This document shows positions 10,559 to 38,378 of a stretch of 64,000 nt of DNA, one piece after another (position 1 is the stretch's first letter; each line of letters begins with the position of its first letter). The position numbers were made by a program, and so were the translations under genes. The notes beneath the pieces were generated by a model. That model worked only from the letters and a program-made list of their open reading frames with translations, was not told the DNA's origin and did no database searches. Source of the stretch: Roseibacillus sp. (GTDB lineage Bacteria; Verrucomicrobiota; Verrucomicrobiia; Verrucomicrobiales; Akkermansiaceae); contig JBPOGI010000001.1 of assembly GCA_051251855.1 (NCBI GenBank), positions 608,001 through 672,000 of the forward strand, written 5' to 3'.

Positions 10559-10639
10559 AACGGCGACGGTGGAGAACGAGGTAAAAGAACGCTTTTAAGC
10601 TTTGACGAGAACCCTCATTGCGAAGAAGAGAGCGCCGTT

Positions 10640-10987: not shown

Positions 10988-11044
10988 AAGGTTCCTTAAA
11001 CTTCTTTTGACAACTTGGGGTCCCTTACCCATAGTCCGCCGCCC

Positions 11045-11605: not shown

Positions 11606-11611
11606 ATTCTC

Positions 11612-12868: not shown

Positions 12869-12871
12869 TTT

Positions 12872-12925
12872 TTTAAACAAGTGATTAAAACAATCGTTTG
12901 ACGGTGGCTTTTTTCGGGGTATTGT
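12872..12925 (+). promoter_or_regulatory. Sigma70-type promoter with tandem TetR (PsrA-like) operator sites
   Basis: TTGACG (12898) and TATTGT (12920); overlapping inverted repeats TTTAAACAAGTGATTAAA and TAAAACAATCGTTTGA (AAAC-N4-GTTT). Confidence 0.6.
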
Positions 12926-12939
12926 CGGCCGTGGTGAAG

Positions 12940-13566: not shown

Positions 13567-13595
13567 TGATAGCCGAGAGTGGAGGTGGCATCGCC

Positions 13596-15014: not shown

Positions 15015-15032
15015 AGAAGGAGACGGCACAGT

Positions 15033-16298
15033 ATGAATGATGATAAATTAGAGACGATGACCTTCGAGGAACTCGAGAAAGACCGAGGTCTTGCCTTGCG
15101 TGCAGTGATGAGCTTCGTCGCTGTGTTGGTGATTCTAGGGCTAATGTCTGCGGCGATTTGGATTCTGATTATGAGCAAGCCGACGGCGGCCAAGAAGGTG
15201 GAGACTGCGGCGATGGCTCGCACCGTTCAAGTGGCGACAGTTGAGAAGGCTAAGGGGGAGGTAGAGATTCGCGCCGAAGGGGTGGTCGAGAGTCAAAGGG
15301 TGGTGAACCTAACCGCTGAAGTCACAGGGAAACTCATTGAGGTGAGTTCGAATTTGGTTCCTGGAGGGAAAGTTCGTCAGGATGAGATCTTGGTCACCAT
15401 CGACCCTGCTGATTATCGGGCAGCCCTAGAGCAGGCCAAAGCGGCCCAAGAGCGAACGCGCATGACGGTGGCTGATGCAGAGTTGGCGATCGAGCAAGAG
15501 GAGGCCCGACGTGAGCAGGCGCTCCGTGATTGGAAGAAATTAGGGAAGGGGAACCCGAGTGATCTCCTAGCCCGCAAACCTCAGTTGGCAAGTGCGCAAG
15601 CTCGGTTGGCAAGCGCCAAGGCTGATGTCGAGAGTTCGGCGGCAGAGGTGGAGCGGGCGAGTCGTAATTTGACGCGGACTGTGATTCGAGCCCCTTTCGA
15701 CGCGGTTGTTCGGCAGGAGTCGGTTGAAGTGGGAGCTGTTTTGGCGCCGGGGACGATGTTAGCGACTCTATTTTCGGAAAGCAGTCTGGAGGTCGAACTC
15801 CCTCTGAAGCTCGAAGATTATGCTCTCTTAAGCCGTGATGAAAACGGGGCCGTGCAAGGCGACGTAAAGCTGGTGGGAACCCTTGGTGTGCGGGAAGTGA
15901 TTTGGCCGGGTCGAATTGTGAGAACAACGGGCGAAGTGGAGCGAGGAGCTCTTACTGCGAGTGTGGTGGTTGCCATTGAGGGCGCTGAGGGGGAGGGGGA
16001 ATTACGGTTACCTCCTCCGGGACTGTTCGTTCGGGCCGAGTTACAGGGGCAAACTTTGGATGACGCTTTGGTTATTCCGCGTGAGGCGGTGCGTGAGGGG
16101 AATCGCCTAGCGGTGGCTACTGAAGAGGGGACGCTTGATTTTCGGATTTTGACGGTGGTGCGCTCGAACGCCACCAAGGTGTTTGTCAGTGAAGGTGTCG
16201 AGGTTGGAGAGCGGGTCGTATTGACAAGGGTGACGGGGGCGATTCAGGGGATGGAAGTTGAAGTCGAGGAATCTGTCCAAGGAGAGGAAGGCGAGTAA
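15033..16298 (+). CDS. RND efflux periplasmic adaptor (membrane fusion protein)
   Basis: TM anchor, AEVTGKL lipoyl half, helical hairpin, TVIRAPFDAVV, PGLFVRA. Confidence 0.93.
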   Translation: MNDDKLETMTFEELEKDRGLALRAVMSFVAVLVILGLMSAAIWILIMSKPTAAKKVETAAMARTVQVATVEKAKGEVEIRAEGVVESQRVVNLTAEVTGKLIEVSSNLVPGGKVRQDEILVTIDPADYRAALEQAKAAQERTRMTVADAELAIEQEEARREQALRDWKKLGKGNPSDLLARKPQLASAQARLASAKADVESSAAEVERASRNLTRTVIRAPFDAVVRQESVEVGAVLAPGTMLATLFSESSLEVELPLKLEDYALLSRDENGAVQGDVKLVGTLGVREVIWPGRIVRTTGEVERGALTASVVVAIEGAEGEGELRLPPPGLFVRAELQGQTLDDALVIPREAVREGNRLAVATEEGTLDFRILTVVRSNATKVFVSEGVEVGERVVLTRVTGAIQGMEVEVEESVQGEEGE

Positions 16299-19200
16299 TG
16301 GAAGGTGTTGTTCGTTGGTTCACTCGTAATCATGTTGCAGGCAATTTTCTAATGCTGGCTATCTTGCTAGCGGGCTTTACGACTTGGTTCAAAGTCCGAA
16401 AGGAAATTTTTCCGGACACGGCGTTCGACGCTCTAACAGTTTCGATTCCTTATCCCAATGCCACTCCCGAGGAGGTAGAGCGTGGGGTGGTGGTGCCGGT
16501 TGAGGAAGCGGTGGCTGATGTGTTAGGCATTAAGAAGATGCGTTCGAGCTCGTCGCAGAATGGCGGCGGAGTGACGATTGAGGTTGAGAATGGTTATGAG
16601 GTTCGCGATGTCATGGATGATGTCAAAACGCGGGTCGATGCCATTGCTAACTTTCCTGAGGAGGCGGAGAAGCCTGTCCTGGAAGAGATTGTGATTACCT
16701 CACCGGTGATGGCGATTACGCTGGTTGCGGACGGGGCCGATGAAACGACTTTGGTCAAGCTGGCGGAAGAAATTAAGGACGAGTTGCTTTCTTTCGAGCC
16801 TCAGAAGAAGCCAACCTTCATGGAGTTCGTGGGGAACGCTTTGGCCGGAAAACCGAAGATTACCAAAGTATCGATCGCTGGAACCCGTCCTTATGAAATT
16901 TCGATTGAAGTCAGTGAGGAGCGGTTGAGGGAACTGGGATTGACCCTCGGTGAAGTTGCCGATTCTGTGCGGCGCTTCTCGGTCGACTTGCCAGCAGGAT
17001 CGATTCGCAGTGAGGGAGGCGAACTGATCGTGCGAACGGTTGGTAAGAAGTTCCACGCCGTTGATTTTGCAGGCGCTCCCATTAAGACTCTTTCCGATGG
17101 TTCGGTTGTTCGCTTGAGCCAAGTCGCGAAGCTAATCGATGGCTTTGAGGATGTGGACTTGAGCGTGACCTACGACAGTGAGGAAGCTGTGGTGGTCAAT
17201 GTCTATCGAGTGGGAGACCAAGATACCACGCGCTTGGCCAAGATGGTGGAAGAGTATGTAGAATGGAAGAATGGGCAATCTTTGAACGGAGTGACTCTCG
17301 GGATTTGGAATGATCAGAGTGAACTGCTCAAAGGACGTATTGATTTGTTAGCTCGTAACGCGTCTTTTGGGCTTCTGTTTGTTTTGATTGTGCTGGCGCT
17401 GTTTCTGCGTCCTTCTCTGGCGTTCCTAGTTGCCTTGGGGATTCCGGTTTCTTTCGCTGGAGGAATGTGGTTGATGCCAATGCTGGGGATCTCGATCAAT
17501 ATGATTTCTCTTTTCGCCTTCATTCTCGTTCTGGGAATTGTGGTCGATGATGCCATTGTTACGGGCGAAAATGTCTACGCGCGTATTCAAAAGGGGGAGC
17601 ATCCCACCTTGGCTGCTTGGAAAGGGACGCACGAGGTTGGAACAGTTGTTATTTTCGGAGTCCTCACGACGGTGGTTGCGTTTACGCCGATGCTCGGGTT
17701 GAGCGGGGTGAGCGGCAAGATTTGGCCAAACATTCCGTTGGTAGTCATTCCGACGTTGCTGTTCTCATTGGTGCAGTCGAAGTTGGTTCTGCCTGCTCAT
17801 TTGGCTTTATTGGGGCCAACGAAGTCGGACGAGGAGCGAAGCCACTCGCGGTGGAGGGCGTTTCATCCATTGAACCCGGTGAAGTGGGTTGTGTTTTTGG
17901 TAGAAGGACTTTTTTGGATTCAGCATCAGATCGCTTCGGGTCTTCTCCTCTTTGTTAAGAATATCTATCAGCCTGCGTTGAACTTTGGACTGCGTTGGAG
18001 GTATCCCATGATCGCCCTCTTTTTTGCAATCTTTGCCTTCAGTCTCGCGGTGGTGGGGACAGGGCGGATTAAGTTTCAGTTCTTTCCCGAGGTGGAGGGA
18101 GATATTTTGAGTGCGAAGTTGGAGTTGGCTCAAGGGGTGCCCTTTTACCAGACGGAAGAAGTAGTGGCTCGGATTGCGGAGGCTGCCTCTCAGATGGGTG
18201 AACAGTATCAGGGATACGAGGGTGAACCGGTTGTGCGGCATGTGCTTGCGAGTAGCGGGACTCAGCCTTTTATTACAGGGTTTCAGCCCGGTGGCCCACC
18301 AAAAGCAACGCACATTGGAGAGGTCACGATTGAGCTTTTACCCTCAGCGAAGCGCGCTGTAGGGAGTGACGAATTAGTCAGTAAATGGCGCGAGTTGACG
18401 GGGGATATTCCAGGAGTGGTTGAGCTCTCTTTTAAGGCGGAGACTGCCTCGGGCGGGAATGCGATTGATCTAAGTTTGACGGGATCGAACCTCGAAGAAT
18501 TGGAGGCAGCGACGGCTTTTGCTAAGGAGCGGTTGGGTGACTACGAGGGTGTGATTGATATTGCCGACAGTAGTCGGGCTGGGAAGGACGAGATTCAAAT
18601 CGTTCGCCTCACTCGCGCGGGGGAGACTTTGGGATTTACTCTGGGGGACGTGGGGGGGCAGGTCCGAGATGCCTTTTTCGGGAACGAAGTGCAACGACTG
18701 CAGCGAGGGCGAGATGAGGTAAAGGTTATGGTTCGACTACCAGCCGCAGACCGGCGCACGACAGAGACGATCGAGAAGTTGGAACTTACCAGCCCCTCCG
18801 GTGAGCGAGTGGCGTTACGGGATGTCGCGGTCTATCAGTTTGGAAGCGGTCCGGCGGTAATTAATCGTACTGATCGTCAAAGGTCAGTGAAGGTGACGGC
18901 CGATGTGGATGAAAGCACCAACGCTAACGAAGTGGTTGGGCTATACACGAAGGAGGCGCTTAGTGAGATGTCCAGCAGGTTTCCTAGTGTGCAGTGGGGT
19001 TTTGAGGGAGAGCAAGAGGACCAAGCCAACTCTGTTCGGGAAATCGGGATCGGCTTTTTGGGGGCGATTATTATCATGTATGTTCTGATTGCGATTCCTC
19101 TTAGAAGTTACTTTCAGCCGATTATTATTTTGAGTGTGATTCCGTTTGGGCTCATCGGAGGGATTTGGGGGCATGCTGCTCTCGGGATGAATTTGTCCAT

Positions 19201-19570
19201 CATGTCAATGGTAGGTTTTGTAGCGTTGGCTGGGGTTGTTGTGAATGATTCGTTGGTAATGGTGGACTTTGTGAATCGTCACCGAGATGAGTTGGGGTCC
19301 GCTCGGGAAGCGGCCTTGCAGGCGGGAGGACGGCGCTTTCGAGCTATTCTTTTGACCTCGTTGACAACGTTTGTCGGCCTTTTACCTATGCTGGCAGAGC
19401 AAGATATGCAGGCGAAATTTTTGATTCCAATGGCGGTTTCTTTGGGGTTTGGAATCATCTTTGCGACGACGATCACTCTCTTCTTGGTTCCGGGAGTTTA
19501 TGTCGTCATGGATGATGTCCAGAGGGTGCTTTTGCGCATCGCTCGCGGTTTCCGCAAGACGAAGGTATGA
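16298..19570 (+). CDS. RND efflux transporter permease (AcrB/AcrD/AcrF family)
   Basis: LGIVVDDAIV, GVVVNDSLV, RFRAILLTSLTT; 12-TM layout; TAATG coupling to the adaptor gene. Confidence 0.96.
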   Translation: MEGVVRWFTRNHVAGNFLMLAILLAGFTTWFKVRKEIFPDTAFDALTVSIPYPNATPEEVERGVVVPVEEAVADVLGIKKMRSSSSQNGGGVTIEVENGYEVRDVMDDVKTRVDAIANFPEEAEKPVLEEIVITSPVMAITLVADGADETTLVKLAEEIKDELLSFEPQKKPTFMEFVGNALAGKPKITKVSIAGTRPYEISIEVSEERLRELGLTLGEVADSVRRFSVDLPAGSIRSEGGELIVRTVGKKFHAVDFAGAPIKTLSDGSVVRLSQVAKLIDGFEDVDLSVTYDSEEAVVVNVYRVGDQDTTRLAKMVEEYVEWKNGQSLNGVTLGIWNDQSELLKGRIDLLARNASFGLLFVLIVLALFLRPSLAFLVALGIPVSFAGGMWLMPMLGISINMISLFAFILVLGIVVDDAIVTGENVYARIQKGEHPTLAAWKGTHEVGTVVIFGVLTTVVAFTPMLGLSGVSGKIWPNIPLVVIPTLLFSLVQSKLVLPAHLALLGPTKSDEERSHSRWRAFHPLNPVKWVVFLVEGLFWIQHQIASGLLLFVKNIYQPALNFGLRWRYPMIALFFAIFAFSLAVVGTGRIKFQFFPEVEGDILSAKLELAQGVPFYQTEEVVARIAEAASQMGEQYQGYEGEPVVRHVLASSGTQPFITGFQPGGPPKATHIGEVTIELLPSAKRAVGSDELVSKWRELTGDIPGVVELSFKAETASGGNAIDLSLTGSNLEELEAATAFAKERLGDYEGVIDIADSSRAGKDEIQIVRLTRAGETLGFTLGDVGGQVRDAFFGNEVQRLQRGRDEVKVMVRLPAADRRTTETIEKLELTSPSGERVALRDVAVYQFGSGPAVINRTDRQRSVKVTADVDESTNANEVVGLYTKEALSEMSSRFPSVQWGFEGEQEDQANSVREIGIGFLGAIIIMYVLIAIPLRSYFQPIIILSVIPFGLIGGIWGHAALGMNLSIMSMVGFVALAGVVVNDSLVMVDFVNRHRDELGSAREAALQAGGRRFRAILLTSLTTFVGLLPMLAEQDMQAKFLIPMAVSLGFGIIFATTITLFLVPGVYVVMDDVQRVLLRIARGFRKTKV

Positions 19571-20313: not shown

Positions 20314-20339
20314 AGAATTCCCCGTTGGGGAACGGATTT

Positions 20340-23300
20340 TTACTGGCTGCTGTCTTCCTCAACAAGAACGCGGAGATATCCTCGCTCATGGTCCGACTCT
20401 GAGAGACGGAAGGTGAGGTAGTGATATCCGTTAGGTGCTACGGGGACGTTGCTTGGATTAGGAATGAAGGTGACGCCCTGATCCCAATCTTCGAGGTCGG
20501 AGGAGCCTTGGAAGGTGTAGATGAGGCCAGCTGCCCGATAGCTATTGCGCCCGAGGGTTCCACCGACTGCGACGGGAACGGTCTGGCAGCAATTGCCTTC
20601 ATGGTCGAAACCGAGAAGAAGTTGTGGGCGGCTTGAGGATGAGCCTTGATTTGAGCCGAAGGCAAATTCAAGGAGGTTGCTCGTGTTATCGCCATCGCTG
20701 TCCATCATTGCCGCGGCTTGTTGCCCGGTTTCGCTGAGCGTTGTGAAGGTCAGGTTGGACGCGGGTGCGGTTTCAATGAATTCGAACCAGTTCACATTAA
20801 CGGCATCGCCGATCATCTCGAGGCGAAGTACCCTTTCTCCAGAGGTGGCAATAGCTAGGTTCGGGAGAGTGAAGGTGACCCAATTTCCCCAACCGCCGGT
20901 GGACTGAACGTCAATCGTGCCAAGAACTTCACCGTCGAGGGTGACTCGGACGTCGCCCACGATGGACTCGTTACTGGAAGCGCGTAGGTTGAGCTGATAG
21001 ACGCCTGGTGTGGTGTTGAGGGTGTATTCCATCCATTGAGCATCATCAAACCAGCCTACATTAAATCCACCGTCAGTGTCACCAGAGGGCTCGATATCGA
21101 CGGCATCACCGCGATAGGAACCGCCAAAGTTCTCGGGGTCGGCATCGGAGTAGGCAACGCCTTCGCCGCCGAGGTCGTAGTCCTCAGCCTGAACGCGGCC
21201 GGGGACGGCATGGGCGGTGCCGCCGAAGGGCGACTGTCCCGTTGGAGGGGGAGGAGCGACGGATCCGTCGTCGAATTCAACCCAGTTCAGGTTGAAGCCT
21301 GCGGCTCCCGCGAATCTCAGTCGAAGGATGTGGCTGCCGGTCTCTGTGATGGTCACTTGGGGAATGGTAAGAGTCTCCCAGTTATACCAATCGCCGGTGC
21401 CATTGACGGAGAAGACACCGAGTGAACGACCGTCAAGTTCGACAGCCAGTTGACCAGGGAAGGTAAAGCCACTCGCGATACGTGCGTTGAGGTCGTAGGT
21501 GCCTGGGGTCACATTGACCGTGTATTCGAGCCATTCGCCGGGGTCGGTCCAACCGATGGAGGGAGTGGCGTTGGTGTCGAAGGAGGCCTCGATATCGACT
21601 CCGCTGGTGCGGTAGTTGAGGTCGGTATAGGTGAGACCGAAGTTCTCTTCCTCCGAGTCAAGGTAGGCTTCTCCTGGGCCGTCTTCGTCGAAGTTTTCGG
21701 CTTCAATTTTACCAGGGATATTGGCTGCCACTCCGCCGAATGGGGTTTGGTTGCCGGTCGGAGGCGGAGGAGTGACGGAAGGGTCACGGAGTTCGAGCCA
21801 GTTGAGGTTAAAGGATGATCCTTGATATTCGAGACGCAGGACGGCGTCACCACTAGGTACGGTGATGCTGGGGAGAGTGAAGTCTTCCCAGAGATACCAA
21901 CCTCCGGTGGAGTCGATATCGATTTCGCCGATAGGGCTGCCGTCTAACAGAACACGTATGGTTCCGGGGATAGCGAGTTCGCTGGCAGCGCGAGCCACAA
22001 TATCGTAGGTGCCAGCGGTGAGGGTAACGGAGTATTGAGTCCATTCACTGTCTTCGAGCCAGCCGATGGCAGGGGTGTCGTCGGTGTCGTTAGAGGCTTC
22101 GAGGTCGACGCCTTCGTCACGGAAGTTGGGACCAAAGTTAGCACCGAAGTTCTCGGGGTCGAGGTCACTGTAGGAGATGCCGGGACCACCAGTATCGTAG
22201 TTTTCGACTTGGAGCCGGCCGGGAAGTGCTGTCGGGGTTCCTCCGAAGGCAAGTGAGGCATCGGGAACTTCGTCTGGTTTACCTTCGAGCTGATTGATGA
22301 AGGATACCAGATAGTTGCGTTCCGTGGTGGTGACCGAAACGCCGTCATGGGCATCGATGGCGGCGGCGAGGTCGGGCGCGGAACCGTCATGGAGATAAGG
22401 GGCACCCGCGAATGCAGTGAGGAGAGAAGGGGTGTCGAGGCCGGGGAGGTTGCCGCCGAGACGTTGACCCGAAGCGGAAGTCAGAGTGCCGATATCGTGG
22501 AAGGAACTTCCGGAGTCCGTGAAGGCGCTTCCGCTATGACAGTCGACGCAGCCCTTCGAGGTGAAGAGGTCGCGGCCCGCGAGGCCGGCTGCGGTGAGCT
22601 CTCCGGCATTTGTGCGGTGCGGGGAGACCGGTTTCTCAGTCAGGCTTCCCAAGTAGGCTGCGAGGGCATCAAGGTCGGCACTGCGCCCGCCGTTAGGAGT
22701 GCCGAGTGGTGCATGGGGAGTGCCGTTCGCAATGAGTCCTGATCCTCCCGAGAAGTTGCGGATTTGGCCTTCGAAGTCTTGAACCTCATCAAAGTTGGCG
22801 GACCAGTGGAAGGGGCCGTGCTCTTCGCCGCCTCGGCCGTGAAGCTCGATGGTGTTGCGGAGTCCTTCTCCAACGCCGGTGAAGTCCCAAGTACGGCCGT
22901 CGTGTCCGGCGTCGTTGTGGCAAGAGGCGCAGGACATGTAGTTCTCCAAACTGAGTCTGTCGTCAAAAGAGTCGTAGAAGAGTTGTTTGCCGAGAAGGAT
23001 TTGAGCTGGCAGAGCTTCTGCAGCCGTCGCATCTAAGGTGGCGACGGTAGAAGAAGTTTCGGTTCCGTTCTCTACAAGGGCCGCAATATCGTGAAGGGTC
23101 ACGGATCGGCTCATGAAGTTGTGAACGAGGAGTGTGTGGCCGTCAGCAGAAAGAGCGAGGCCTTGGGGTGCTCGCTCCACGTTGATGCGGAAGAGCTCTT
23201 GTTCTCCGTAGACGTCGACGACGGAGACTTCGCGGGATCCTTCCAGTGCGACGAAGAGGTGTAGCCCGTAAGGTCCATAGATTGCTGCTGAGGGTAGTCC

Positions 23301-26300
23301 GGAGTTGTCAAAGTCGATTCGGCTTAGGTAATCCTCATTGTTTGTAGAGAGGTTCAGGCGCGACGTGACGGAGCGGACTGTATTCTGGTGGTCGAGTTGG
23401 CGTCCGTCGCGAAGCATTCCGCGTTCGATGTTGTCGAGCTTGGAGGGAATCCAGGCGGAGTCATTGGCGGGGGAAATGGCAGGGGCACCCAAATAGTTGG
23501 GGAGTCCACGGCCGCCGCCAGCGAAGTCACTTTCGGTGGAGGCTTGCAAGCGAGTCGTGGTGAGAGAACTTGGGTTGGCTGGGTCCATGATGCCGATGTA
23601 ACCGCCAGCGTTAGTGAGGTTAGGGTTCGCCGTAGACTCGCCGGGAGCGGGTGGGGAGATAAAGCGGGGTAGGTAGAGTTGGCTTCCGTTGTGGTTGATG
23701 GCGAGGTGGCGGGGACCTTCGCCCGCATCGTGACGACCGAGATTGCCACCAGTCGTGGGATTCAGCTGGGCGACGAGGCCGTCTGCTTCCAAGGCAACCC
23801 AAGCGCTGCTTCCATCAGGGCTATGCACGACTCCGTGAGGTTGGGAACCTCGGGGGAAGACGCGGGTCACTAAGCTGTAGTTGTTCGGGTTGATGATGGA
23901 GAGGGTTGCGGAGTTCTTGTTGGTGACCCAAACCCGTCCATCGGGGGCGAGGCTGAGGGTGCGAGGGGAGTCGCCTACCGCGACCTCGGTAATTTTGTTG
24001 CCGGTCACGAGGTTGAAGACGCTCACGGTGTCTTGGTCTGGATTAACGCTCCAGACTTGCTCGTTGGTGCCATTGCCCACAGTGATGACGGGTTGACTAT
24101 TGCGAGGACGGTTGGCGGTGAGTGCAGGGTGAACGAGATGAGTGATGCGCCTCGTGACTGAAGTGCCATTGTTGTCAGTCGCTGTCAGGGTCACTGTATA
24201 GCGACCAGGATTGGCGAAGGTATGGTTGGCCGCTGGGCTGGTGGAAGTGACTTCGGCGGTGCCATCACCAAAGTTCCAATTATAGCTCACGCCTGTTCCT
24301 CCCGTGGCTGCCACGGAGAAGTTGGTGGATGAACCCGACTGGCTTGGAGTGGTGAGAGTCTCGGGGAGGGTAATGGCCGCGCGAATGATCCAGCGGAAGG
24401 TGCGCGAGGCCTGTTCACCAGCAGGGTCGGAAACGGTGACGATAGGGTTGTAGGTCTGCGGACTGGTAGGGCTTCCTGTCATGCGGCCGCTGGTCGCATT
24501 CATGGTTAATCCTGGCGGTAAACCTGTGGCGCTATAGGTGAGAGTGTCTCCGTCGGCGTCCGAGCCGAAGGCTCGAATGTTGATAGCCGTTCCGACAGTG
24601 TGAATACGGTTGGCTAGGATGGCTAAGGTAGGAGCTTGGTTGTCATCAGGAATGAAGGTCACGCGAACTGACTCCAGTTCGAAGTGAGCAGACTCGCTGA
24701 GACCGTTCTTTTTCGAGAGGTAGGCGCCGAGGCGCAGGGTATGATTGCCGGCGGGAAGGATGGCTGAAGAGACAGTGGAAGTGAGGTCGCCCGAGTCGCC
24801 GCCACCGGTGTTTTGATAGAGGTAGCTATTGCCGTTTGTTCCGAGTAGCTGTCCGCCAATAGAGACAAGGGCTTGGCTGTTTTCATCGCTATCGAGAGTA
24901 AGATCCGCATCGAGTCTCCACTGGGGGCTGACGACAATGGTGCCCGGCTGGCTTAATGAGATCGTTCTTTGCCAAGCTCCCGACATCCCAGTGCGGCCAG
25001 AGGTGTCGACTCCTCCCAATTCGACATGAAGGCGACCATCACGAACGGGTGAACCCGAGCGACCTGCTTGGAAGTTGGTCGCGATATCGGCATTGGTCAG
25101 GCGTTTGCTGTAGACCGCAAGAAGATCGTAGTCGCCCAGCCAAGCGCGATCACCCGCCAGTTCGTTGGCGAGGGCAAATTGATAGGAAGGATCCCAGTTG
25201 GTGAAGTCGCCGGGAACGGTGGCAGATTTGATGAGGGAGCCGTTGAGGTAGATACGACCCACTCCGTCTGAGATGGTGTAGACGACGTGCTGGTAAGCGA
25301 TGGCTGCAGGGTTGGTGGTCGTTTCAACTCCAGGAAGTCCGTTGGTGGAGGTTTGCGGAGTGCGGACCCGTCCGTGGTAGTTGAGGGCTTCCTGTCCAAG
25401 GGTGAAGTTGCGCAGACTGGTTGTGCTCGAGAGTGTCGCAATGCGGGCAGGTCCTGCTTGGGTGAGATTTTGAGGACGGATCCAGGCCTCGATGGACATG
25501 GCATTGCTCGTGGTGATGGAGTTGTAGAGCTTACTTGCTGCTCCCGCGCTGCGGATGAGGGTGCTGCCGTTGACGCTGAGAGTTCCATCGCCATTCCAAG
25601 CGGTTTGAGCGGGTGTGGTGATGGTGAGGTTAAGCGGAGTGCCATTGCCAGCCACGTCGTAGACGATGTTAGAGTTTGCCCCTTGGTCAAAGGTATAGAG
25701 AGCCTGAAGAGTGCTGCCGGCGACTCGGCTCTGAATAGCGTTAACACCACTGGCGTAATTAGGGTTGTTGGTGCCACGGAAGGCGTCATCGACGTAGCTA
25801 AAGCCACCGTCGTCACTTTCAAAATCTTCTTCGAAAAGGAGACTGCCATCGATGGTCCATGGCTGTGTGCTAGAGACCTGTTGGCTATCGCTATCAGTGA
25901 CAGTGATGGTCACGTTGGTAGTCCCAGTTGCGGTCGGCTGGCCGGTGATGGCTCCAGTAGAGGAGTTGAGTGAAAGTCCCGCAGGGAGGTTGCTTGCCGA
26001 AAAGGAATAAGGGGGCACCCCTCCGCGAGCGGAAACGCCGTGATTGAGACTGGTATTGAGGAAGGCGTTGAGGGGCGCCTGATGGGTGAGAGAAAGTTCT
26101 CCGACTTTGATGCGCAGATAAAGACCGTTGCGATTGTTGAGGTTAGAGGACCAGACCCACTTGGCATCCGAGTCGACGGGGAATCCGGAGATGGTATTCC
26201 AAGGGGAGCTGCCGAGACCGCCGTGTTCGGTGGCGGAAGACCAAGAGGAGTCATTGAAGTTGGGTTGTTCCCAGCCTGAGGGAGCGGTGTGCGACACTTT

Positions 26301-28535
26301 CCAATCTGAGGAGGTTGTGACGAGCTCACCATTGACTCGAAGTTGCCCGAGTAAACCTGTGGCGCCTACGACGTCGGTCACGTGGATGGCAATGGTCGAA
26401 CTTTGGCTGCCTGAGAACGAGGTGGTCGTTGCGTTGTTAGAGTTGAGACCGATCTGAGTCAGTTGACCATCGACGTAGAGTTCGTGGCGGTTTTGGGAAG
26501 CGATAGTGGCCTCGTTGAGAGGCTCGATGGCGCGCAGCACGCGGGAGGGAACGATGGCCTTGGGAGTGCGAGGGCTGGACCACTTCAGCTGAATGATCGA
26601 GGCAGCAGTACCTTGAAAGTAGTCGAGGCGAATGGGGACGGGGACTCCTGCTTGGAGGCTGATGGTCGCCGAGTTCTCGGTGGATCCGTGGTTGGTCCAG
26701 TTATTGATGATGAGCTGGTCATCAATCCAGAGCCGGACGCCGTCATCTGATTGGGTGTGGAAGGTGTAGGTTTCGCTATACTCAGGAATGATCCAACCGG
26801 TCCAGCGAACGGAGTAGGTGTCGTTGCCGACGAGGTCAGGGAGGGGTGAGTTGGAGGTCGAGGTGTAGTCGATGAGGGCATCGGTACGAGTTTCCTTCAA
26901 AGTGTTGAAGCCGGTGCCATCGTAGTATCGAGCCAAAAGGCCGCTGGTGTCGGCGTCAGAGGTCTCCTTGACGTGAATGATTTTGGCTTCGGAGTAGGAG
27001 CCGTTGGCGCGGGTGCCGAACAGCATCCAGTAACCAGGAACCATGACATCCTTGTTAGGGTGAGAGATGAGTTGGTATTTTCCGCTGGAGGTCTCGGTGA
27101 AGGGAATGTCGAGAAAGCGTTGGTCTGAGGTGACGCCATGGGTGATGGCAATCATACGAATCATGGAGAATCGACGGAGGTTTGCGGAGGCATCAACTTC
27201 AAAGACCGAGCCTAATGAAACTGCATCTGGTGCGGTCGTAATAACGGGACGCGCAATAGGTTCGTTGCTGGCATTGAGAAGAGCGGGGGGAGTGAGAATT
27301 TGTGCATCAGGGTGGGTAGCGGGATGATTGGCATTGCCGACACCGGAGAGAAAGCCACCACCACCAGAAAAGACGCGACCGTCGGGCAAGAGTGCCGCGG
27401 TGGAGTGGTAGTTGCGAGGGATGGCCATGCTAGCAAGAGTGCGCCAAGTTCCGGTGGTGGGGTTCCAGACCTCGGCAGGGAGAATAGAGCCTGTATCAGA
27501 GAAGCGTTGACCGGTGGTGTTTCCTCCGATGGCAACGACTTCGCCTGAGGGCAATGCGACAATGTTGTGAAGACTGCGAGCAAAGGCCATGGAAGAAGTT
27601 GTCTCAACCGTGGGCGGAGTAGTGTTGAGATCAACGGTGTAGCAAAGCTTGCTGGCGGCATTCGAGGCGGCAACGGCAGCGCCACCGACGATGAGATACT
27701 TGCCGGAGCCATACATGACGATGCCGCCGTCGTGGGGATAATGGTTTCCTGGGACGGTGACTCCTGCGGAGATGCGTGAGCCGTTGCCACTGGCATCGAC
27801 CCAATGCATGGCATCCGTGGGGCCAAAGTGAAAGAGGCGTCCATCGGGAGCGACCATGAGGAAGGGCCAGCCTTCACTCTCGAATCCGGCCGCGCCTGAT
27901 ACCGGCTGCCAGTTGATACCGTTGAGCAAATTCCATTGGTTGCTATCACGGTCGAAGCGTTCAGCTTCGTTCGGGCTTCCTCGGCCTCCAAAGGTGGCGA
28001 CGTCTCCATCGGGGAGCGCTACCGCGGTGGTATACCAGCGCGGACCATTCATATCAGAGACGCGATTCCACGAATTGGAGCGCCAGTCATAGATGGAGGA
28101 GTGTTCGATGGTGAAGCGGCCGCCTACTGTTTGGAGGAGACCGTCGGTACGCATCACGGGGTGGGCGCAGAACATTTCGTGACCTTGATAGAGATCGTTC
28201 GCGAATTGGGAGGTCTCGGGATTCCAAAGCGACCAGTGAGTTCGGTGAGCCGTTCCGGGCCAACTGAGAAGCTCTTGTCCAGAGTAGGTGAGGAGCTTGC
28301 CGTTGGGAAGGACCGCCAAAGAAACCGGAACATGCGGCCAGTCGATGACGGGTCCCCAAGAACCTGCGCGCGTGGAAATGGTGGGAGCCGCTGGAGTGGC
28401 GGTGTAGTTGGGCAATAGGGAGGCCGCCTGCTGCCAAAACGCATCGTCTTCGGCGTGGACGTTGGCATCAGCGAGTGAGCTCGTGAGGGAGCTGAACCAA
28501 GTGATGAGGAGGATGAACAGGGTGGAACGTTTCAT
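20340..28535 (-). CDS. 2731-aa secreted multidomain copper radical oxidase: kelch/galactose-oxidase + DUF1929, PA14, jelly-roll, Ig-like, LamG, PKD, YVTN beta-propeller, di-heme cytochrome c, 3x CBM6-like, C-terminal motif
   Basis: Signal peptide; EMFC, RWY, RNYHS, ITHG Cu/radical motifs; GLLARYYDG...SDDGVRLWID (PA14); YNWNFGDG (PKD); CASCH and CVDCH; three PGxxxxExYD repeats. Confidence 0.9.
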   Translation of the reverse strand: MKRSTLFILLITWFSSLTSSLADANVHAEDDAFWQQAASLLPNYTATPAAPTISTRAGSWGPVIDWPHVPVSLAVLPNGKLLTYSGQELLSWPGTAHRTHWSLWNPETSQFANDLYQGHEMFCAHPVMRTDGLLQTVGGRFTIEHSSIYDWRSNSWNRVSDMNGPRWYTTAVALPDGDVATFGGRGSPNEAERFDRDSNQWNLLNGINWQPVSGAAGFESEGWPFLMVAPDGRLFHFGPTDAMHWVDASGNGSRISAGVTVPGNHYPHDGGIVMYGSGKYLIVGGAAVAASNAASKLCYTVDLNTTPPTVETTSSMAFARSLHNIVALPSGEVVAIGGNTTGQRFSDTGSILPAEVWNPTTGTWRTLASMAIPRNYHSTAALLPDGRVFSGGGGFLSGVGNANHPATHPDAQILTPPALLNASNEPIARPVITTAPDAVSLGSVFEVDASANLRRFSMIRMIAITHGVTSDQRFLDIPFTETSSGKYQLISHPNKDVMVPGYWMLFGTRANGSYSEAKIIHVKETSDADTSGLLARYYDGTGFNTLKETRTDALIDYTSTSNSPLPDLVGNDTYSVRWTGWIIPEYSETYTFHTQSDDGVRLWIDDQLIINNWTNHGSTENSATISLQAGVPVPIRLDYFQGTAASIIQLKWSSPRTPKAIVPSRVLRAIEPLNEATIASQNRHELYVDGQLTQIGLNSNNATTTSFSGSQSSTIAIHVTDVVGATGLLGQLRVNGELVTTSSDWKVSHTAPSGWEQPNFNDSSWSSATEHGGLGSSPWNTISGFPVDSDAKWVWSSNLNNRNGLYLRIKVGELSLTHQAPLNAFLNTSLNHGVSARGGVPPYSFSASNLPAGLSLNSSTGAITGQPTATGTTNVTITVTDSDSQQVSSTQPWTIDGSLLFEEDFESDDGGFSYVDDAFRGTNNPNYASGVNAIQSRVAGSTLQALYTFDQGANSNIVYDVAGNGTPLNLTITTPAQTAWNGDGTLSVNGSTLIRSAGAASKLYNSITTSNAMSIEAWIRPQNLTQAGPARIATLSSTTSLRNFTLGQEALNYHGRVRTPQTSTNGLPGVETTTNPAAIAYQHVVYTISDGVGRIYLNGSLIKSATVPGDFTNWDPSYQFALANELAGDRAWLGDYDLLAVYSKRLTNADIATNFQAGRSGSPVRDGRLHVELGGVDTSGRTGMSGAWQRTISLSQPGTIVVSPQWRLDADLTLDSDENSQALVSIGGQLLGTNGNSYLYQNTGGGDSGDLTSTVSSAILPAGNHTLRLGAYLSKKNGLSESAHFELESVRVTFIPDDNQAPTLAILANRIHTVGTAINIRAFGSDADGDTLTYSATGLPPGLTMNATSGRMTGSPTSPQTYNPIVTVSDPAGEQASRTFRWIIRAAITLPETLTTPSQSGSSTNFSVAATGGTGVSYNWNFGDGTAEVTSTSPAANHTFANPGRYTVTLTATDNNGTSVTRRITHLVHPALTANRPRNSQPVITVGNGTNEQVWSVNPDQDTVSVFNLVTGNKITEVAVGDSPRTLSLAPDGRVWVTNKNSATLSIINPNNYSLVTRVFPRGSQPHGVVHSPDGSSAWVALEADGLVAQLNPTTGGNLGRHDAGEGPRHLAINHNGSQLYLPRFISPPAPGESTANPNLTNAGGYIGIMDPANPSSLTTTRLQASTESDFAGGGRGLPNYLGAPAISPANDSAWIPSKLDNIERGMLRDGRQLDHQNTVRSVTSRLNLSTNNEDYLSRIDFDNSGLPSAAIYGPYGLHLFVALEGSREVSVVDVYGEQELFRINVERAPQGLALSADGHTLLVHNFMSRSVTLHDIAALVENGTETSSTVATLDATAAEALPAQILLGKQLFYDSFDDRLSLENYMSCASCHNDAGHDGRTWDFTGVGEGLRNTIELHGRGGEEHGPFHWSANFDEVQDFEGQIRNFSGGSGLIANGTPHAPLGTPNGGRSADLDALAAYLGSLTEKPVSPHRTNAGELTAAGLAGRDLFTSKGCVDCHSGSAFTDSGSSFHDIGTLTSASGQRLGGNLPGLDTPSLLTAFAGAPYLHDGSAPDLAAAIDAHDGVSVTTTERNYLVSFINQLEGKPDEVPDASLAFGGTPTALPGRLQVENYDTGGPGISYSDLDPENFGANFGPNFRDEGVDLEASNDTDDTPAIGWLEDSEWTQYSVTLTAGTYDIVARAASELAIPGTIRVLLDGSPIGEIDIDSTGGWYLWEDFTLPSITVPSGDAVLRLEYQGSSFNLNWLELRDPSVTPPPPTGNQTPFGGVAANIPGKIEAENFDEDGPGEAYLDSEEENFGLTYTDLNYRTSGVDIEASFDTNATPSIGWTDPGEWLEYTVNVTPGTYDLNARIASGFTFPGQLAVELDGRSLGVFSVNGTGDWYNWETLTIPQVTITETGSHILRLRFAGAAGFNLNWVEFDDGSVAPPPPTGQSPFGGTAHAVPGRVQAEDYDLGGEGVAYSDADPENFGGSYRGDAVDIEPSGDTDGGFNVGWFDDAQWMEYTLNTTPGVYQLNLRASSNESIVGDVRVTLDGEVLGTIDVQSTGGWGNWVTFTLPNLAIATSGERVLRLEMIGDAVNVNWFEFIETAPASNLTFTTLSETGQQAAAMMDSDGDNTSNLLEFAFGSNQGSSSSRPQLLLGFDHEGNCCQTVPVAVGGTLGRNSYRAAGLIYTFQGSSDLEDWDQGVTFIPNPSNVPVAPNGYHYLTFRLSESDHERGYLRVLVEEDSSQ

Positions 28536-30241
28536 GGTGAGTTGGGGAATTTGTGGTCAGTGAGGGTATTGAGAAAAGCGAGGAGATCGGCCTTGTCTTC
28601 GTCGTCGAGGTCAAGTCCGGTCTGGGGGTGCTTTGCGAGGTTGGGGTCGAGGGTGGGAGAGCGTTTGATGCCGGAGTTATAGTGCTCAATGACTTCTTCC
28701 AGAGTCTTAAAACGGCCGTCGTGCATGTAGGGCGCAGTGAGGGTGAGGTTGCGTAAGGAAGGCACTTTGAGCTTGCCGCGATCGTTAGGGTCTCCAGTGA
28801 CCAGTTCGCGGCCTAGGTCCTTGAAAGTGTTCGAAAGGCCGTTGTTGTGGAATCCATGATTGGTAAAGAGAGAGCCACCGTGGCAGTGGAAGCAATCCGC
28901 TCCTTTGAGGCCGTTTGCAGGGTCATGCTCGGTCACGAAGAGTTCGAAGCCGCGCTTTTCTTGTTCGGTGAATTCGACCTCGCCTCGCATCGCTTGGTCG
29001 AAACGGGCTTCCTGCGAAACCAAGGAAAGGAGGTATTGCTCGAGAGCTTTGGCGAGGTGATCCGAGGAGGCTTCCGCGATTCTAAAAACAGTTTCGAATT
29101 GTTGTTGGTAGTGACTATCGCTGTTGATGCGAGTCAGGGCTTCCTCGAGAGGAAGAGCCAGTTCGTCAGGATGCTCGATGGGGTGGAGGACTTGTTCCCG
29201 TAGAGTGGTCGCGCGGCCGTCCCAGAACATTTCTTTGTGCCAAGCGAGATTGAAAAGAGGCATTGAGTTACGAGAGCTCTTTCCACCGAGATGTCCGACG
29301 GAAAAGGCTTTGCCGGTATCAGAGAAGGCGGCTTCTGGTTGATGGCAACTGGCGCAAGAGAGGTTACGATCGTGAGAGAGGGTGGTGTCAAAAAAGAGCT
29401 TCTTGCCCAGGGCGATTCCTTCGGCTGTGAGGGGGTTATCAGCAGGGAAAGCTGGCTTGGGAAAGTGGCTTTGAATCAACGGCTGACCCGAGGAGGCTGA
29501 AGGCGACTCTAGGTCTGCGCCCGTGGTGGGAGGGTGGAAGACACCAGAGTGAATTTTCTCTACGGAGAAGCTTTTGGCTAAAGCTTCGGACATCAGTTTG
29601 GCGACGGGATCTCCGGTACGGGAATGAGTGGAAGTGGTCGCCCGAATATCAAGGTTTGAGCCTCCTAAGAGAGGGGAGAGGTCGAAGCGGAGAGAAATCG
29701 TGCGTGCACTTTGCGCAGACAGCGAGAGAGGGAGGGTGATGGTGGTGGCGTTCTCGTCATTGCCCAAATGATAGAGGAAGCCAAGGTCGCTCTCGCTGTG
29801 ACCTTCGACGGCGCAGAAAATGTAGCCGGTTTGCCAAGTCCAGTGCAGATTGTTGAGTTGGGGATTGAGAGGATGATCGGCTGGGTAACGATTAGGGTCG
29901 GAATGATTACTCTCTGAATCCAAGCCGACCACGAAGCGAATCGCACGATAATCGCCGGTTGGAATTTGACCTAAGGAGAAGTGGGTTCGGTTGTTCGAGT
30001 GAGAGATGAAGGCAACGAGACTGGCGTTGGCTTCCATCCAAGAACCGTCTTTGCGCTGGAGGGCAAATTGAGAGAGAAGGGAGTCGCAGCGAGTGACCTT
30101 GATTCCGTCCACTTCCTCTCCGAGTTGGTAAGAGCGGCCCGAAAGCTCCAGTTCGAAGGTAAGATCACAACGTGTCGTCTGAGCCTGAGCGGGCAGCAGA
30201 AACAGGAGTGGGAACAAAAAATGATGAGCGATCTTCCTCAT
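28532..30241 (-). CDS. MbnP-MbnH fusion: copper-binding WxW domain fused to a di-heme (MauG/bCcP superfamily) enzyme
   Basis: Signal peptide; GLDSESNHSDP, LHWTWQTGYIF, YHLG (MbnP); PADNPLT...LGKKLFFD, SCASCH, FWDGRA, CFHCH, KVPSLRN, PYMHDGRF (MbnH). Confidence 0.88.
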   Translation of the reverse strand: MRKIAHHFLFPLLFLLPAQAQTTRCDLTFELELSGRSYQLGEEVDGIKVTRCDSLLSQFALQRKDGSWMEANASLVAFISHSNNRTHFSLGQIPTGDYRAIRFVVGLDSESNHSDPNRYPADHPLNPQLNNLHWTWQTGYIFCAVEGHSESDLGFLYHLGNDENATTITLPLSLSAQSARTISLRFDLSPLLGGSNLDIRATTSTHSRTGDPVAKLMSEALAKSFSVEKIHSGVFHPPTTGADLESPSASSGQPLIQSHFPKPAFPADNPLTAEGIALGKKLFFDTTLSHDRNLSCASCHQPEAAFSDTGKAFSVGHLGGKSSRNSMPLFNLAWHKEMFWDGRATTLREQVLHPIEHPDELALPLEEALTRINSDSHYQQQFETVFRIAEASSDHLAKALEQYLLSLVSQEARFDQAMRGEVEFTEQEKRGFELFVTEHDPANGLKGADCFHCHGGSLFTNHGFHNNGLSNTFKDLGRELVTGDPNDRGKLKVPSLRNLTLTAPYMHDGRFKTLEEVIEHYNSGIKRSPTLDPNLAKHPQTGLDLDDEDKADLLAFLNTLTDHKFPNSP

Positions 30242-30531
30242 GGGGTGGAAACGAGCGCGCAGACTACTATTTTTTATAAATACGATAAAATATTTTATGA
30301 AAGTTGTTTAATGGGGATGTGGCTTTATATTCTTGCAGTAATCTTATTTTAAGTGGTTTAAGTGGTATTTCGTGTCTGTTTAGTAAGGGTGTTTTCCTGC
30401 TGGTTCCGCAATTTTTTAGTTAGGTTTTATGTAATACCTTGTTTGTTTGATTTTTTGAAGAAGAGAGGTAGATGGCTTTAGGGTGACAGTTCTCTTGGCT
30501 GAAGGAGGGTGCTTTGGCTAGGGTTGCCTTA

Positions 30532-31788
30532 GTGAAAGCTTTAGCCCTGTTCCCAATTCTCTTCTTTTGGTTGTTGAGTGTCCCTCTTTTTGCTGAGCCG
30601 ACGGAGGAACGTGAATGGACCTCGAAAGCAGGAACGAAGTTGGTGGCCTCGGCGCTCGAAATTGATGGCTCGGAAGTGGTTCTGCAACGGGGAACGGGCG
30701 CAACTCTGCGAGTCAAACTGAACCAACTCGTGGCCGAAGATCAGGAGGTTTTGAAAAAGCACTTCTCGGAAGGAGATTCTGAGATTGCGAACGGGAAGAT
30801 GGAGGGCTTGCCTCATCCGCAGGGGGAGGTCGTGGGGCCGATTCAGGCGGAAGGAGGGAAGTATTTTCTCTATGTTCCCAAGAATTTGGTGAAGGAGCGA
30901 TTGGCTCCGTTGTTATTTTTTACGGGCGCAGGAGGTGGGTCTGCGGGGAGCGTTAAGCGTTTCACCGAAGGGGCAGAAGTGAATGGTTGGATCGTAGCGG
31001 CTTCAGTGGAGTCGAAAAATGGCAAAGACGGTCGCCCGTTTGTGAAGGCTTGCTTAGAGCATATTCAAGCCACCCTTCCAGTCGACCCCGAGCGGTTGTA
31101 TTTCACGGGGACTTCGGGTGGCGCAGTGTTCTCGATGATCAACTGCGAGACCTACGATGGAGCAGGGGCGATGCCCTTTATCGCGCATGGGGTGATCAAT
31201 ACTTTGCCTTCGAAGAAGGGCCACTACTACTTTGTGAACGGCGCTACCGACTATAACCGCTATGGGTCTTCCTGGATGCGCACGGGTTACAAGGATCATG
31301 CCTTTCATCGCTTCCATAAGGGCGCTCATGGCGCGGGACCTTTTTATCTGGGGCATGATGGGATGGCTTGGCTCAATGGTCAGTATCTTGCAGAGAAGGA
31401 ATCGGACCGGGAATTTGCGCAAGAGCGTCTCGACTACGAAAGAGCCATCTTGGCATGGGCTGGTCGCTTGCAGGCGGACGCGCCTCATAGAGCGCTTATG
31501 CATTTAGATTTTCTGACCGAAGAGTATGAGGTCTCAAGAGAGAATGCTGGCAAGGTCGATGAGTTGAAGCGTGAGCTCTCGGAGAACCCGAACAATGTTC
31601 GTTACGTCGAGGCTCTTAAAGCGATTGACGAGTTCTCGCAGGACGAATTTTCTGGAAAAGGCGGGAGTTCTCTCCACAAGCACACGAGCGACGATATCAA
31701 AAAAGCAGCGTCCAAATTGGAAGCCGAGTATCAGGGAGTTCCCGAGGTGCCCGAGATTCTGAAGAATCTTCCGAAGCCTTCGATTTAG
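30532..31788 (+). CDS. Secreted SHD1 (SLA1 homology)-domain alpha/beta hydrolase
   Basis: Signal peptide, REWTSKAG...LNQLVAEDQE (SHD1-like), YFLYVP, YFTGTSGG nucleophile elbow, KGAHG. Confidence 0.75.
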   Translation: MKALALFPILFFWLLSVPLFAEPTEEREWTSKAGTKLVASALEIDGSEVVLQRGTGATLRVKLNQLVAEDQEVLKKHFSEGDSEIANGKMEGLPHPQGEVVGPIQAEGGKYFLYVPKNLVKERLAPLLFFTGAGGGSAGSVKRFTEGAEVNGWIVAASVESKNGKDGRPFVKACLEHIQATLPVDPERLYFTGTSGGAVFSMINCETYDGAGAMPFIAHGVINTLPSKKGHYYFVNGATDYNRYGSSWMRTGYKDHAFHRFHKGAHGAGPFYLGHDGMAWLNGQYLAEKESDREFAQERLDYERAILAWAGRLQADAPHRALMHLDFLTEEYEVSRENAGKVDELKRELSENPNNVRYVEALKAIDEFSQDEFSGKGGSSLHKHTSDDIKKAASKLEAEYQGVPEVPEILKNLPKPSI

Positions 31789-34616: not shown

Positions 34617-34687
34617 CCGTGTTTTGAAATTACTCTCAAGGGCGCTAATATCTTTCCCGATTGGCTAAGAAAAGTGGTGGGCTTCGA

Positions 34688-38278: not shown

Positions 38279-38378
38279 TTGTTCCCTTTCCAATTAATTC
38301 CATTTATGAATCAGAGAGGACTGGGGGAACGGCATGGTGGGGTTGCCAGAAATCGCTCAGAAATTCACCCTCAAGGGT

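Follow-up and report, generated by a model that had tools for sequence, protein, structure and literature searches.

What does a MbnP-MbnH-type copper protein do beside the gene for a giant secreted oxidase? The question is raised by a 64,000-nucleotide stretch of Roseibacillus sp. DNA (contig JBPOGI010000001.1, positions 608,001 to 672,000), called the window here, in which a gene for a fused MbnP-MbnH protein (mbnPH, encoding MbnPH) runs directly into a gene for a giant copper radical oxidase (CRO). A preliminary description, made from the letters of the DNA, had proposed that the first protein serves the second as its own copper-loading or maturation factor. We find that the two genes form a conserved, translationally coupled pair. 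Its core features in the window are as follows, given with their lengths in amino acids (aa) and the open reading frame (ORF) or other evidence behind each.

28532..30241, minus strand: mbnPH, encoding a 569-aa secreted MbnP-MbnH fusion (P0001; ORF; Pfam MbnP plus CCP_MauG; PDB 6E1C)
20340..28535, minus strand: giant secreted oxidase gene, 2731 aa (P0002; ORF and a 2729-aa orthologue)
28532..28535, minus strand: ATGA stop/start overlap of mbnPH and the oxidase gene (sequence)

Within the junction sequence CCATGAAA, the oxidase ATG (28535-28533) and the mbnPH TGA (28534-28532) have 4 bases in common, just as the preliminary description had read them, and the two genes are translationally coupled and co-inherited. 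That description had also given both products an N-terminal signal peptide, and these look Sec-like in a judgment made by eye rather than with a predictor. It had further reported that no methanobactin gene or TonB receptor is adjacent, and the wider surroundings agree: no MbnA, MbnB, MbnC, or MbnT gene and no gene for a TonB-dependent receptor was found among the 17 neighboring ORFs scanned, and a search for methanobactin biosynthesis by way of PF05114 (MbnB) found no match in the 95.4%-complete genome (4.96 Mb). The pair is solitary, with a hairpin and a convergent acetyltransferase-like gene on its 3' side and a divergent ORF on its 5' side. The oxidase domain has its closest match in Roseibacillus persicicus (83% identity), a genome matching that species encodes a 2729-aa orthologue of the same architecture, and the sequence is present in seawater metagenome runs.

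Species-representative contigs (one genome per species) were scanned with an alignment of six oxidase domains as the query, which gave 199 CRO relatives; the best 80 of these 199 were analyzed. Among the best 80 loci, MbnPH lies directly upstream and on the same strand in 55, is absent in 15, where at least 1.2 kb of upstream sequence was at hand (1.2 to 6 kb seen), and is cut off by contig ends in 10. MbnPH therefore directly precedes the oxidase in 55 of 70 informative loci, Verrucomicrobiota-wide, and conserved co-occurrence in other genomes, on which the preliminary description had staked its proposal, is what these counts record. When the first in-frame ATG is taken as the start, 31 of the 55 pairs have the ATGA overlap. 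A set of 31 related genomes contained six full-length CRO matches, four of them with MbnPH directly upstream (the window pair and those of genomes G004, G027, and G028); in genome G002, an oxidase is parted from MbnPH only by contig ends (C4 and C200), and a paralogue (G002:C158) is without MbnPH. An even sample of 401 genomes from the phylum held the galactose oxidase-like (GO-like) E-set domain in 4 genomes and MbnP in 16. The E-set loci directly adjoin MbnPH in all four, and three of these genomes have no other MbnP. The pairing is far beyond chance.

The record labels of the loci are nearly all Verrucomicrobiota, with two Chloroflexota, one Rhodothermales, and one Gammaproteobacteria as exceptions, and a few further labels of metagenome-assembled genomes (MAGs) among the best 80 loci look misassigned. 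Cultured strains with the pair in their records are Roseibacillus persicicus KCTC 12988 (L020), Haloferula sargassicola NBRC 104335 (L035), and Brevifollis gellanilyticus NBRC 108608 (L073). In a maximum likelihood tree of 48 MbnPH fusions, midpoint rooted and with outgroup rows from the window's order only, the 38 CRO-linked fusions fall on one side of a branch with 100/100 support; the other side holds eight fusions linked to proteins of the YHYH family and two others. A functional two-gene unit is well supported because MbnPH lies upstream in 55 of 70 loci, the 4-base overlap is frequent, and the CRO-linked fusions form their own clade. This part of the preliminary proposal stands, whereas a strict requirement for MbnPH does not, given the 15 giants without an adjacent copy. 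Some MbnPH fusions are interrupted: at one locus (L046, 4892-5786) the MbnH half lies in two frames, and two YHYH-type or other copies (G001:C27 and G029:C94) carry in-frame stops, one TAG and one TAA.

The features of MbnPH itself are as follows, some of them drawn from an AlphaFold2 (AF2) model.

30182..30241, minus strand: predicted Sec signal peptide, residues 1-20, ending in PAQA and followed by Q (by eye)
29633..30169, minus strand: MbnP domain, residues 25-203 (PF20243, AF2 model, Foldseek, profile match)
29831..29845, minus strand: HWTWQ motif, residues 133-137, with H133, W134, and W136 (alignment); W134 is the candidate kynurenine precursor
28535..29446, minus strand: MbnH (MauG-like di-heme) domain, residues 266-569 (TIGR04039, 229.9 bits)
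29342-29356 and 28880-28894, minus strand: CxxCH motifs of the MbnH domain (CASCH and CFHCH)

These assignments point to a divergent member of the MbnP and MbnH families. Pfam MbnP (PF20243) matches residues 25-203 with 116.7 bits against a gathering threshold of 27 (E value of 1.5e-33), and CCP_MauG (PF03150) matches residues 274-421 with 180 bits (E value of 5.5e-53). Among solved structures, MbnH of Methylosinus is the closest (6E1C; E value of 1.1e-52); the score for TIGR04039 (MbnH), 229.9 bits, is below the cutoff of 362.85. A single-sequence search of the PDB with the MbnP domain gave no match at E values up to 10. A profile of 38 orthologues finds MbnP 7L6G (E value of 0.013) with the WxW motifs aligned, and the HWTWQ motif named in the preliminary description is indeed present at residues 133-137. 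The AF2 model of the MbnP domain has a predicted local distance difference test (pLDDT) score of 90.8, and in a Foldseek search with this model, ranks 1 to 6 are all 7L6G chains (E values of 1.7e-8 to 2.2e-7, TMq of 0.69 to 0.74); rank 7 has a TM score of only 0.27.

All 38 CRO-linked fusions share H133, W134, H158, H206, the two CxxCH motifs, and H520-Y521 without variation, and so do all 10 of the other MbnPH fusions compared. W136 is present in at least 90% of the CRO-linked fusions and is variable in the YHYH-linked ones. The invariant Y521 lies one residue beyond the end of the alignment to the Nitrosomonas peroxidase 1IQC; it may occupy the distal-ligand position of the second heme in MauG and bacterial cytochrome c peroxidase (bCCP), where a Tyr is presumably needed for bis-Fe(IV) chemistry.

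The giant oxidase is a mosaic of the following features, which include carbohydrate-binding modules (CBMs).

26970..28373, minus strand: CRO domain, residues 55-522 (PDB 9G8H and 1GOF; PF09118)
28167-28169, minus strand: CRO active-site codon C123 (alignment, positions checked)
28032-28034, minus strand: CRO active-site codon Y168 (alignment, positions checked)
27405-27410, minus strand: CRO active-site codons Y376-H377 (alignment, positions checked)
27138-27140, minus strand: CRO active-site codon H466 (alignment, positions checked)
26550..26945, minus strand: PA14 domain, residues 531-662 (PF07691, E value of 3e-27)
26193..26507, minus strand: lectin-like domain, residues 677-781 (PDB lectins 6T0Q and 6KBJ, E value of about 4e-10)
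25080..25529, minus strand: Laminin_G_3/ConA-like domain, residues 1003-1152 (PF13385, E value of 1.1e-18)
24159..24590, minus strand: He_PIG and PKD Ig-like spacers, residues 1316-1459 (PF05345 and PF00801)
23046..24104, minus strand: seven-bladed YVTN/YncE-type beta-propeller, about residues 1478-1830 (AF2 model, fold match)
22266..23006, minus strand: built-in di-heme domain of the bCCP/MauG superfamily, residues 1844-2090 (PF03150, PDB matches, hhalign)
22917-22931 and 22536-22550, minus strand: CxxCH motifs of the built-in di-heme domain (invariant in alignment)
20766..22088, minus strand: three CBM6/CBM35 carbohydrate-binding modules, about residues 2150-2590 (PF03422, E value of 2.6e-48 in 3 stretches; PF18099)
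20343..20771, minus strand: C-terminal 143-aa domain with no family assigned (also found in further large ORFs of this genome)

Over residues 55-521, the CRO domain resembles galactose oxidase 9G8H (E value of 5.4e-75); it also matches the Fusarium enzyme 1GOF (E value of 1.6e-54), and the GO-like E-set domain PF09118 scores 59.5 bits. C123, Y168, Y376, H377, and H466 line up with the matching 9G8H motifs and are invariant in 38 of 38 orthologues. Following the residue numbering of the Fusarium enzyme, we take C123 and Y168 to be the thioether cofactor pair, Y376 the axial Tyr, and H377 and H466 the ligands, and the alignment indicates that the galactose oxidase-type site of the giant, with its Cys-Tyr pair, axial Tyr, and two His, is intact. 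Since the GlxA equivalog family NF052501 scores 134.7 bits against a cutoff of 800, the giant is not a GlxA orthologue. Across lineages, the oxidase, Ig spacers, propeller, and di-heme module form a constant core, and the lectin and carbohydrate-binding modules vary (PA14, legume lectin, F5/8-C, jacalin, and DUF1349). The last 143 residues have five further matches in large ORFs of the same genome (E values of 4e-15 to 2e-3), and these proteins may have a sorting or anchoring domain in common there.

Three further observations concern the giants. An invariant His, H27 (28455-28457), stands in an acidic motif after the signal peptide in all 38 giants aligned; the motif was considered as a docking signal for MbnPH and rejected, as it also occurs in giants without MbnPH. 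The giants of L033 (Chloroflexota) and L057 (Rhodothermales), which have no adjacent MbnPH, carry extra His-rich N-terminal tails. In genome G027 (L011, 15595-17256, plus strand), a gene for a 553-aa aldehyde dehydrogenase has a 4-base overlap with the stop of the giant, an arrangement that would fit an aldehyde product and is absent from the other loci examined.

The propeller and the built-in di-heme module form a block whose conservation equals or exceeds that of the oxidase domain itself: residues 1471-2100 are contiguous and full length in 61 related loci, and the 57 other aligned rows have 47-77% identity to the window copy. The AF2 model of this 630-residue block has a pLDDT of 84.9. 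Its top fold match by VIA is the propeller of hydrazine synthase beta (5C2V_B; Z score of 37.2, root mean square deviation of 2.0, 303 residues aligned), and 1L0Q also scores highly (VIA; Z score of 36.1). With this model as query, Foldseek and VIA gave lists filled with propellers, and the di-heme half was assigned by sequence: PF03150 scores 38.7 bits against a cutoff of 25.6, PDB matches include 3O5C (E value of 4.7e-9) and 5C2V_C (E value of 5.4e-7), and alignment to the MbnPH profile with hhalign (probability of 99.3) shows the module to be homologous to MbnH. By sequence it is related to hydrazine synthase gamma and to bCCPs as well. Both of its CxxCH motifs are invariant in 58 of 58 rows. 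The module lies downstream of the CRO domain in 66 of the best 80 loci; of the 14 loci without it, 13 end within 2.6 kb, and that of the Rhodothermales record (L057) has FG-GAP repeats instead. The hydrazine synthase beta-gamma fusion family NF052342 scores 53.5 bits (E value of 1.2e-14), below its cutoff of 1250. For H2O2 handling and activation, the giant's own di-heme module is a better candidate than MbnPH. The roles assigned in the preliminary description were incomplete in this respect, as they took account neither of the conserved di-heme module inside the oxidase nor of the YHYH partner of the sister fusions.

What might MbnPH do for its neighbor? The best explanation of the locus is a two-gene operon of Verrucomicrobiota that encodes a secreted, glycan-targeted CRO together with its own accessory metalloprotein. 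That MbnPH is a dedicated extracytoplasmic copper supply and maturation partner of the oxidase is, by analogy with known systems, a proposition we hold to be evenly balanced between right and wrong. MbnH with H2O2 is reported to form the kynurenine required for MbnP to bind copper (PMC11951088, section 2.1.5), and loss of mbnP or mbnH to leave copper-bound methanobactin unprocessed, so that it accumulates (PMC13729199). For the bacterial CRO GlxA, maturation at limiting copper is described as requiring both the copper chaperone Sco and the heme peroxidase DtpA (PMC4736821). CROs require an initial oxidation, typically by peroxidases, with which they are paired as genes in fungi, according to PMC12951238 and PMC11611005. 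Since 2013, MbnP and MbnH have gone by the name of "mysterious partners," and their role in copper homeostasis outside methanobactin operons is presented as open in PMC3621798.

From this literature and the domain anatomy of the two proteins, we infer dedicated copper loading of the oxidase along the following lines. Acting with H2O2 in the periplasm or on the cell surface, the MbnH half would oxidize W134 in the MbnP half of the same polypeptide and so yield kynurenine. H133, H158, and H206 together with the kynurenine would then make up a copper site, which could take up scarce copper and hand it to the apo-oxidase, whereupon the Tyr-Cys cofactor would form. Anchored on polysaccharide by its carbohydrate-binding modules, the oxidase would convert primary alcohols, such as the galactose C6-OH, to aldehydes and H2O2, and the built-in di-heme module would use up the H2O2 and reoxidize the enzyme to its active Cu(II)-tyrosyl state.

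Several observations weigh against this copper supply role. One is that 15 of the 70 informative giants have no MbnPH within the 1.2 to 6 kb seen upstream. Seven of these 15 belong to a Prosthecobacter/Brevifollis-type paralogue beside a dehydrogenase gene, and no alternative copper module was found upstream of the 15; ORFs of 405 to 450 aa upstream of the negative loci were set aside as probably the antisense reading of an isocitrate/isopropylmalate dehydrogenase-like gene. MbnP was also sought genome-wide in 15 genomes, comprising those of 14 negative loci and the contig-cut L033. It occurs elsewhere in 11 of the 15, nine of which are verrucomicrobial genomes with fusion-size ORFs, and the Rhodothermales genome has an unfused MbnP some 10 kb upstream of the giant on the same strand. 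PF20243 was not found in the other four: Gammaproteobacteria L094, Chloroflexia L079, Promineifilaceae L033, and the MAG of L084. MbnPH is therefore not always required by the giant family. The MbnP domain itself scores 45.3 bits for the MbnP equivalog TIGR04052, below its cutoff of 140. In the 38-row alignment, no Cys is found among the invariant or near-invariant columns of this domain, where the four-Cys motif that the depositors of 7L6G put into its name was looked for, and no Met is invariant. Hence only part of the published His/Met/Kyn site is retained, and these divergent MbnP domains are putative copper binders. Finally, YHYH proteins are the partners of most MbnPH fusions in close relatives, and the trait common to the clients of MbnPH may be something other than copper.

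A second role has therefore to be weighed, in which MbnPH is an oxidative maturase or activator and not a copper donor: its hemes, charged by H2O2, would oxidize the oxidase at a distance and form or regenerate the Tyr-Cys radical, with MbnP as a docking or hole-relay domain. The MauG-family heme motifs and the invariant H520-Y521 are retained, as such chemistry would demand, and the YHYH proteins, the other partner class, are likewise rich in Tyr and His. Precedent comes from the one-electron activation of CROs by peroxidases and their natural gene pairs, as told in PMC12951238 and PMC11611005, and from the requirement of GlxA maturation for DtpA (PMC4736821). However, the giant brings its own di-heme module (47-77% identity among relatives), next to which a second one would seem redundant; the sole MbnH substrate shown in PMC11951088 is MbnP; and the His and Trp residues that cluster without variation in the MbnP half resemble a metal site. 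We consider a purely activating role rather unlikely.

Alternatively, MbnPH could be a general envelope protein for copper acquisition or homeostasis that is coexpressed with the oxidase and raises local copper with no specific handoff. MbnPH pairs occur in many contexts (PMC3621798); of the 13 verrucomicrobial-type genomes whose giant has no adjacent copy, 10 encode an MbnPH fusion at another place (the nine above and G439); and excess copper is reported to rescue Streptomyces sco and dtpA mutants (PMC4736821). Against such a general function, the CRO-linked fusions form a monophyletic clade and frequently share the 4-base overlap, which argues for specialization on a client, and in three genomes the sole MbnP adjoins the oxidase; we regard it as unlikely.

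It is quite doubtful that MbnPH acts instead as a redox partner of the giant's di-heme module, in an electron or peroxide relay with MbnP copper as a redox center, for example as a peroxidase couple shielding the cell surface from H2O2. The two proteins do carry homologous di-heme domains (hhalign probability of 99.3). After the second CxxCH of the giant's module there is no invariant Met, and H2063 is invariant at the distal-ligand place on a gapless reading; a His there, with no Met or Tyr, would suggest an electron transfer heme, but hhalign places H2063 differently. The giants in genomes without a detected MbnP retain the di-heme module, and we know of no precedent for such a relay.

That the adjacency is meaningless, the two neighbors being held together by descent only, is highly improbable and already conflicts with the data: gene order is inherited in related genomes, so counts over kin overstate independence, but the flanking genes change between lineages while the pair remains together, the stop/start overlap is maintained, and the pair is found under the labels Opitutaceae, Chthoniobacteraceae, Verrucomicrobiaceae, and the Roseibacillus lineage.

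The sister clade of MbnPH fusions offers a second view of possible clients. The genome of the window encodes a second MbnPH fusion (593 aa) clustered with a YHYH-sulfatase protein, YHYH proteins partner 8 of the 10 non-CRO-linked fusions examined, and most MbnPH fusions of close relatives sit with YHYH proteins. The YHYH-linked fusions resemble the CRO-linked ones in family, in the same invariant His, Trp, and heme residues, and in having a large secreted partner. They differ in forming a separate clade and in their partner, a PF14240 YHYH protein that is often fused to a sulfatase and is no CRO. One YHYH member has a predicted tri-His metal site (preprint 10.64898/2026.10.18.759936), which would fit a metal delivery role, short of proof. 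A rule of one MbnPH per YHYH protein was considered and rejected, as YHYH proteins also occur away from MbnPH.

Two of the YHYH-linked loci have features of their own. Around the 593-aa fusion (L004, G000:C6:344000-363999; 8264-19307, minus strand), five same-strand genes encode, in order, the YHYH-sulfatase (1117 aa), a 995-aa protein with no family, MbnPH, an OmpA-like protein, and a mechanosensitive channel-like protein, and the same order is seen in G001 (L015). At L014 (G004:C5; 10447-14652, minus strand), a YHYH-linked MbnPH stands by a 1401-aa protein with GDSL lipase, DUF7133, HEAT, and C-terminal cupredoxin-like domains, the last being a further copper link, and a DsbD_N protein is also beside it.

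A bolder proposal, possible and advanced here only tentatively, is that MbnPH would be the first dedicated metallochaperone-maturase of this "metallo-mystery pair" family with a known client. A kynurenine-copper site would hand its metal to a CRO, and the tyrosyl radical would be generated and sustained by MauG-type hemes, those of MbnH and of the oxidase's di-heme module, at the expense of H2O2 from the oxidase, so that the pair would be a self-contained copper/heme glycan-oxidizing machine. The YHYH proteins served by the sister clade would likewise be a further class of secreted Tyr/His copper enzymes, with the same mode of maturation.

Comparison with known systems sets the pair apart from each of them. 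MbnP and MbnH of Methylosinus trichosporium OB3b (7L6G and 6E1C) have the same folds and families, the WxW motif, a MauG-like di-heme partner, an extracytoplasmic location, and a link to copper. Here, by contrast, the two are one fused polypeptide, methanobactin genes and a TonB receptor were not found, neither the four-Cys motif nor the Met ligand is conserved, the scores fall below the TIGR04052 and TIGR04039 cutoffs, and the partner is a defined cuproenzyme. The closest functional parallel may be sought in Streptomyces lividans, where a bacterial glycan-associated CRO, GlxA, is likewise served by a copper-binding protein and a heme peroxidase; the maturation dependence that PMC4736821 shows for GlxA is proposed here. 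The accessories of GlxA, Sco with its thioredoxin fold and a dye-decolorizing (DyP) peroxidase, are unrelated to MbnP and MauG-type di-heme proteins, and GlxA is a membrane-tethered protein of 645 residues, whereas in the present pair heme modules are fused to both the oxidase and MbnP and the genes are translationally coupled. In the Colletotrichum CorAlcOx/CorPerOx tandem, too, a CRO is genetically paired with a heme peroxidase, by which it is activated (PMC12951238); that system is eukaryotic and has single-heme class II-type peroxidases as separate proteins, unlike the bCCP-type di-heme module within the oxidase and the second one in the neighboring gene described here. Galactose oxidases (1GOF; 9G8H/9G43; CAZy AA5_2) share the kelch propeller, the E-set domain, and all five active-site residues, but the giant is four times longer and has additional PA14, lectin, LamG, CBM6, propeller/di-heme, and C-terminal domains. 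The beta and gamma parts of hydrazine synthase (5C2V; NF052342) have a YVTN-type propeller and then a bCCP-like di-heme domain in the same order, but the score is far below the cutoff, there is no alpha subunit, and the context is non-anammox; only the architecture is common to both.

The remaining features of the window lie around the pair, the first of them at its 3' end.

20317..20335, no strand assigned: terminator-like hairpin between the oxidase stop and the convergent hexapeptide-transferase gene (consensus match only)

On the other side, a perfect 14-base AT palindrome, ATAAAATATTTTAT, lies at 30285-30298, 44 to 57 bases 5' of the mbnPH start, and a similar AT-rich palindromic stretch stands upstream in the closest relative (L005). 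A search for a promoter or operator common to the regions 5' of 38 mbnPH genes gave only AT-rich 8-mers, each in at most 6 sequences; no inverted repeat is common to the upstream regions of the 38 mbnPH loci; and sites found in a sigma-70 consensus scan are no more frequent than in shuffled sequence. The divergent ORF 5' of mbnPH (30514-31788, plus strand) encodes 424 aa with no Pfam match. Beyond it, two ORFs of 807 and 564 aa with no Pfam match (32193-36382, minus strand) lie on the same strand as, and downstream of, 36383-38293, which encodes a secreted protein with Endonuclease_NS and lamin-tail domains. Another giant, a 2971-aa ORF at 52320-61235 (plus strand), matches no Pfam family at an E value of 1e-4 or below. 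An ordinary resistance-nodulation-division (RND) efflux operon (TetR, outer membrane factor, membrane fusion protein, and AcrB type) occupies 12898-19570 (plus strand). GC skew is strongly positive in all 2-kb bins of the window (0.14 to 0.35), independent of gene strand.

The MbnPH copper pair and the maturation of a bacterial CRO by a chaperone and a peroxidase are both already known. The preliminary description had known of no account of the present pairing, and our full-text literature search likewise found no paper linking MbnP or MbnH with a CRO, although neighborhood analyses of earlier MbnPH papers could mention the pairing. New, then, is a conserved MbnPH-CRO gene pair in dozens of related species, which likely provides a client for the MbnPH family. 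A copper-dependent client that is coupled to mbnPH makes the purpose of MbnP and MbnH outside methanobactin uptake experimentally approachable. CROs serve as biocatalysts that have to be activated by added peroxidase, and research on them would gain a useful model in a natural CRO that contains a di-heme module and has a copper partner of its own. Its carbohydrate-binding modules, together with the occurrence in seawater metagenomes, point to an unstudied oxidative step in bacterial polysaccharide handling.

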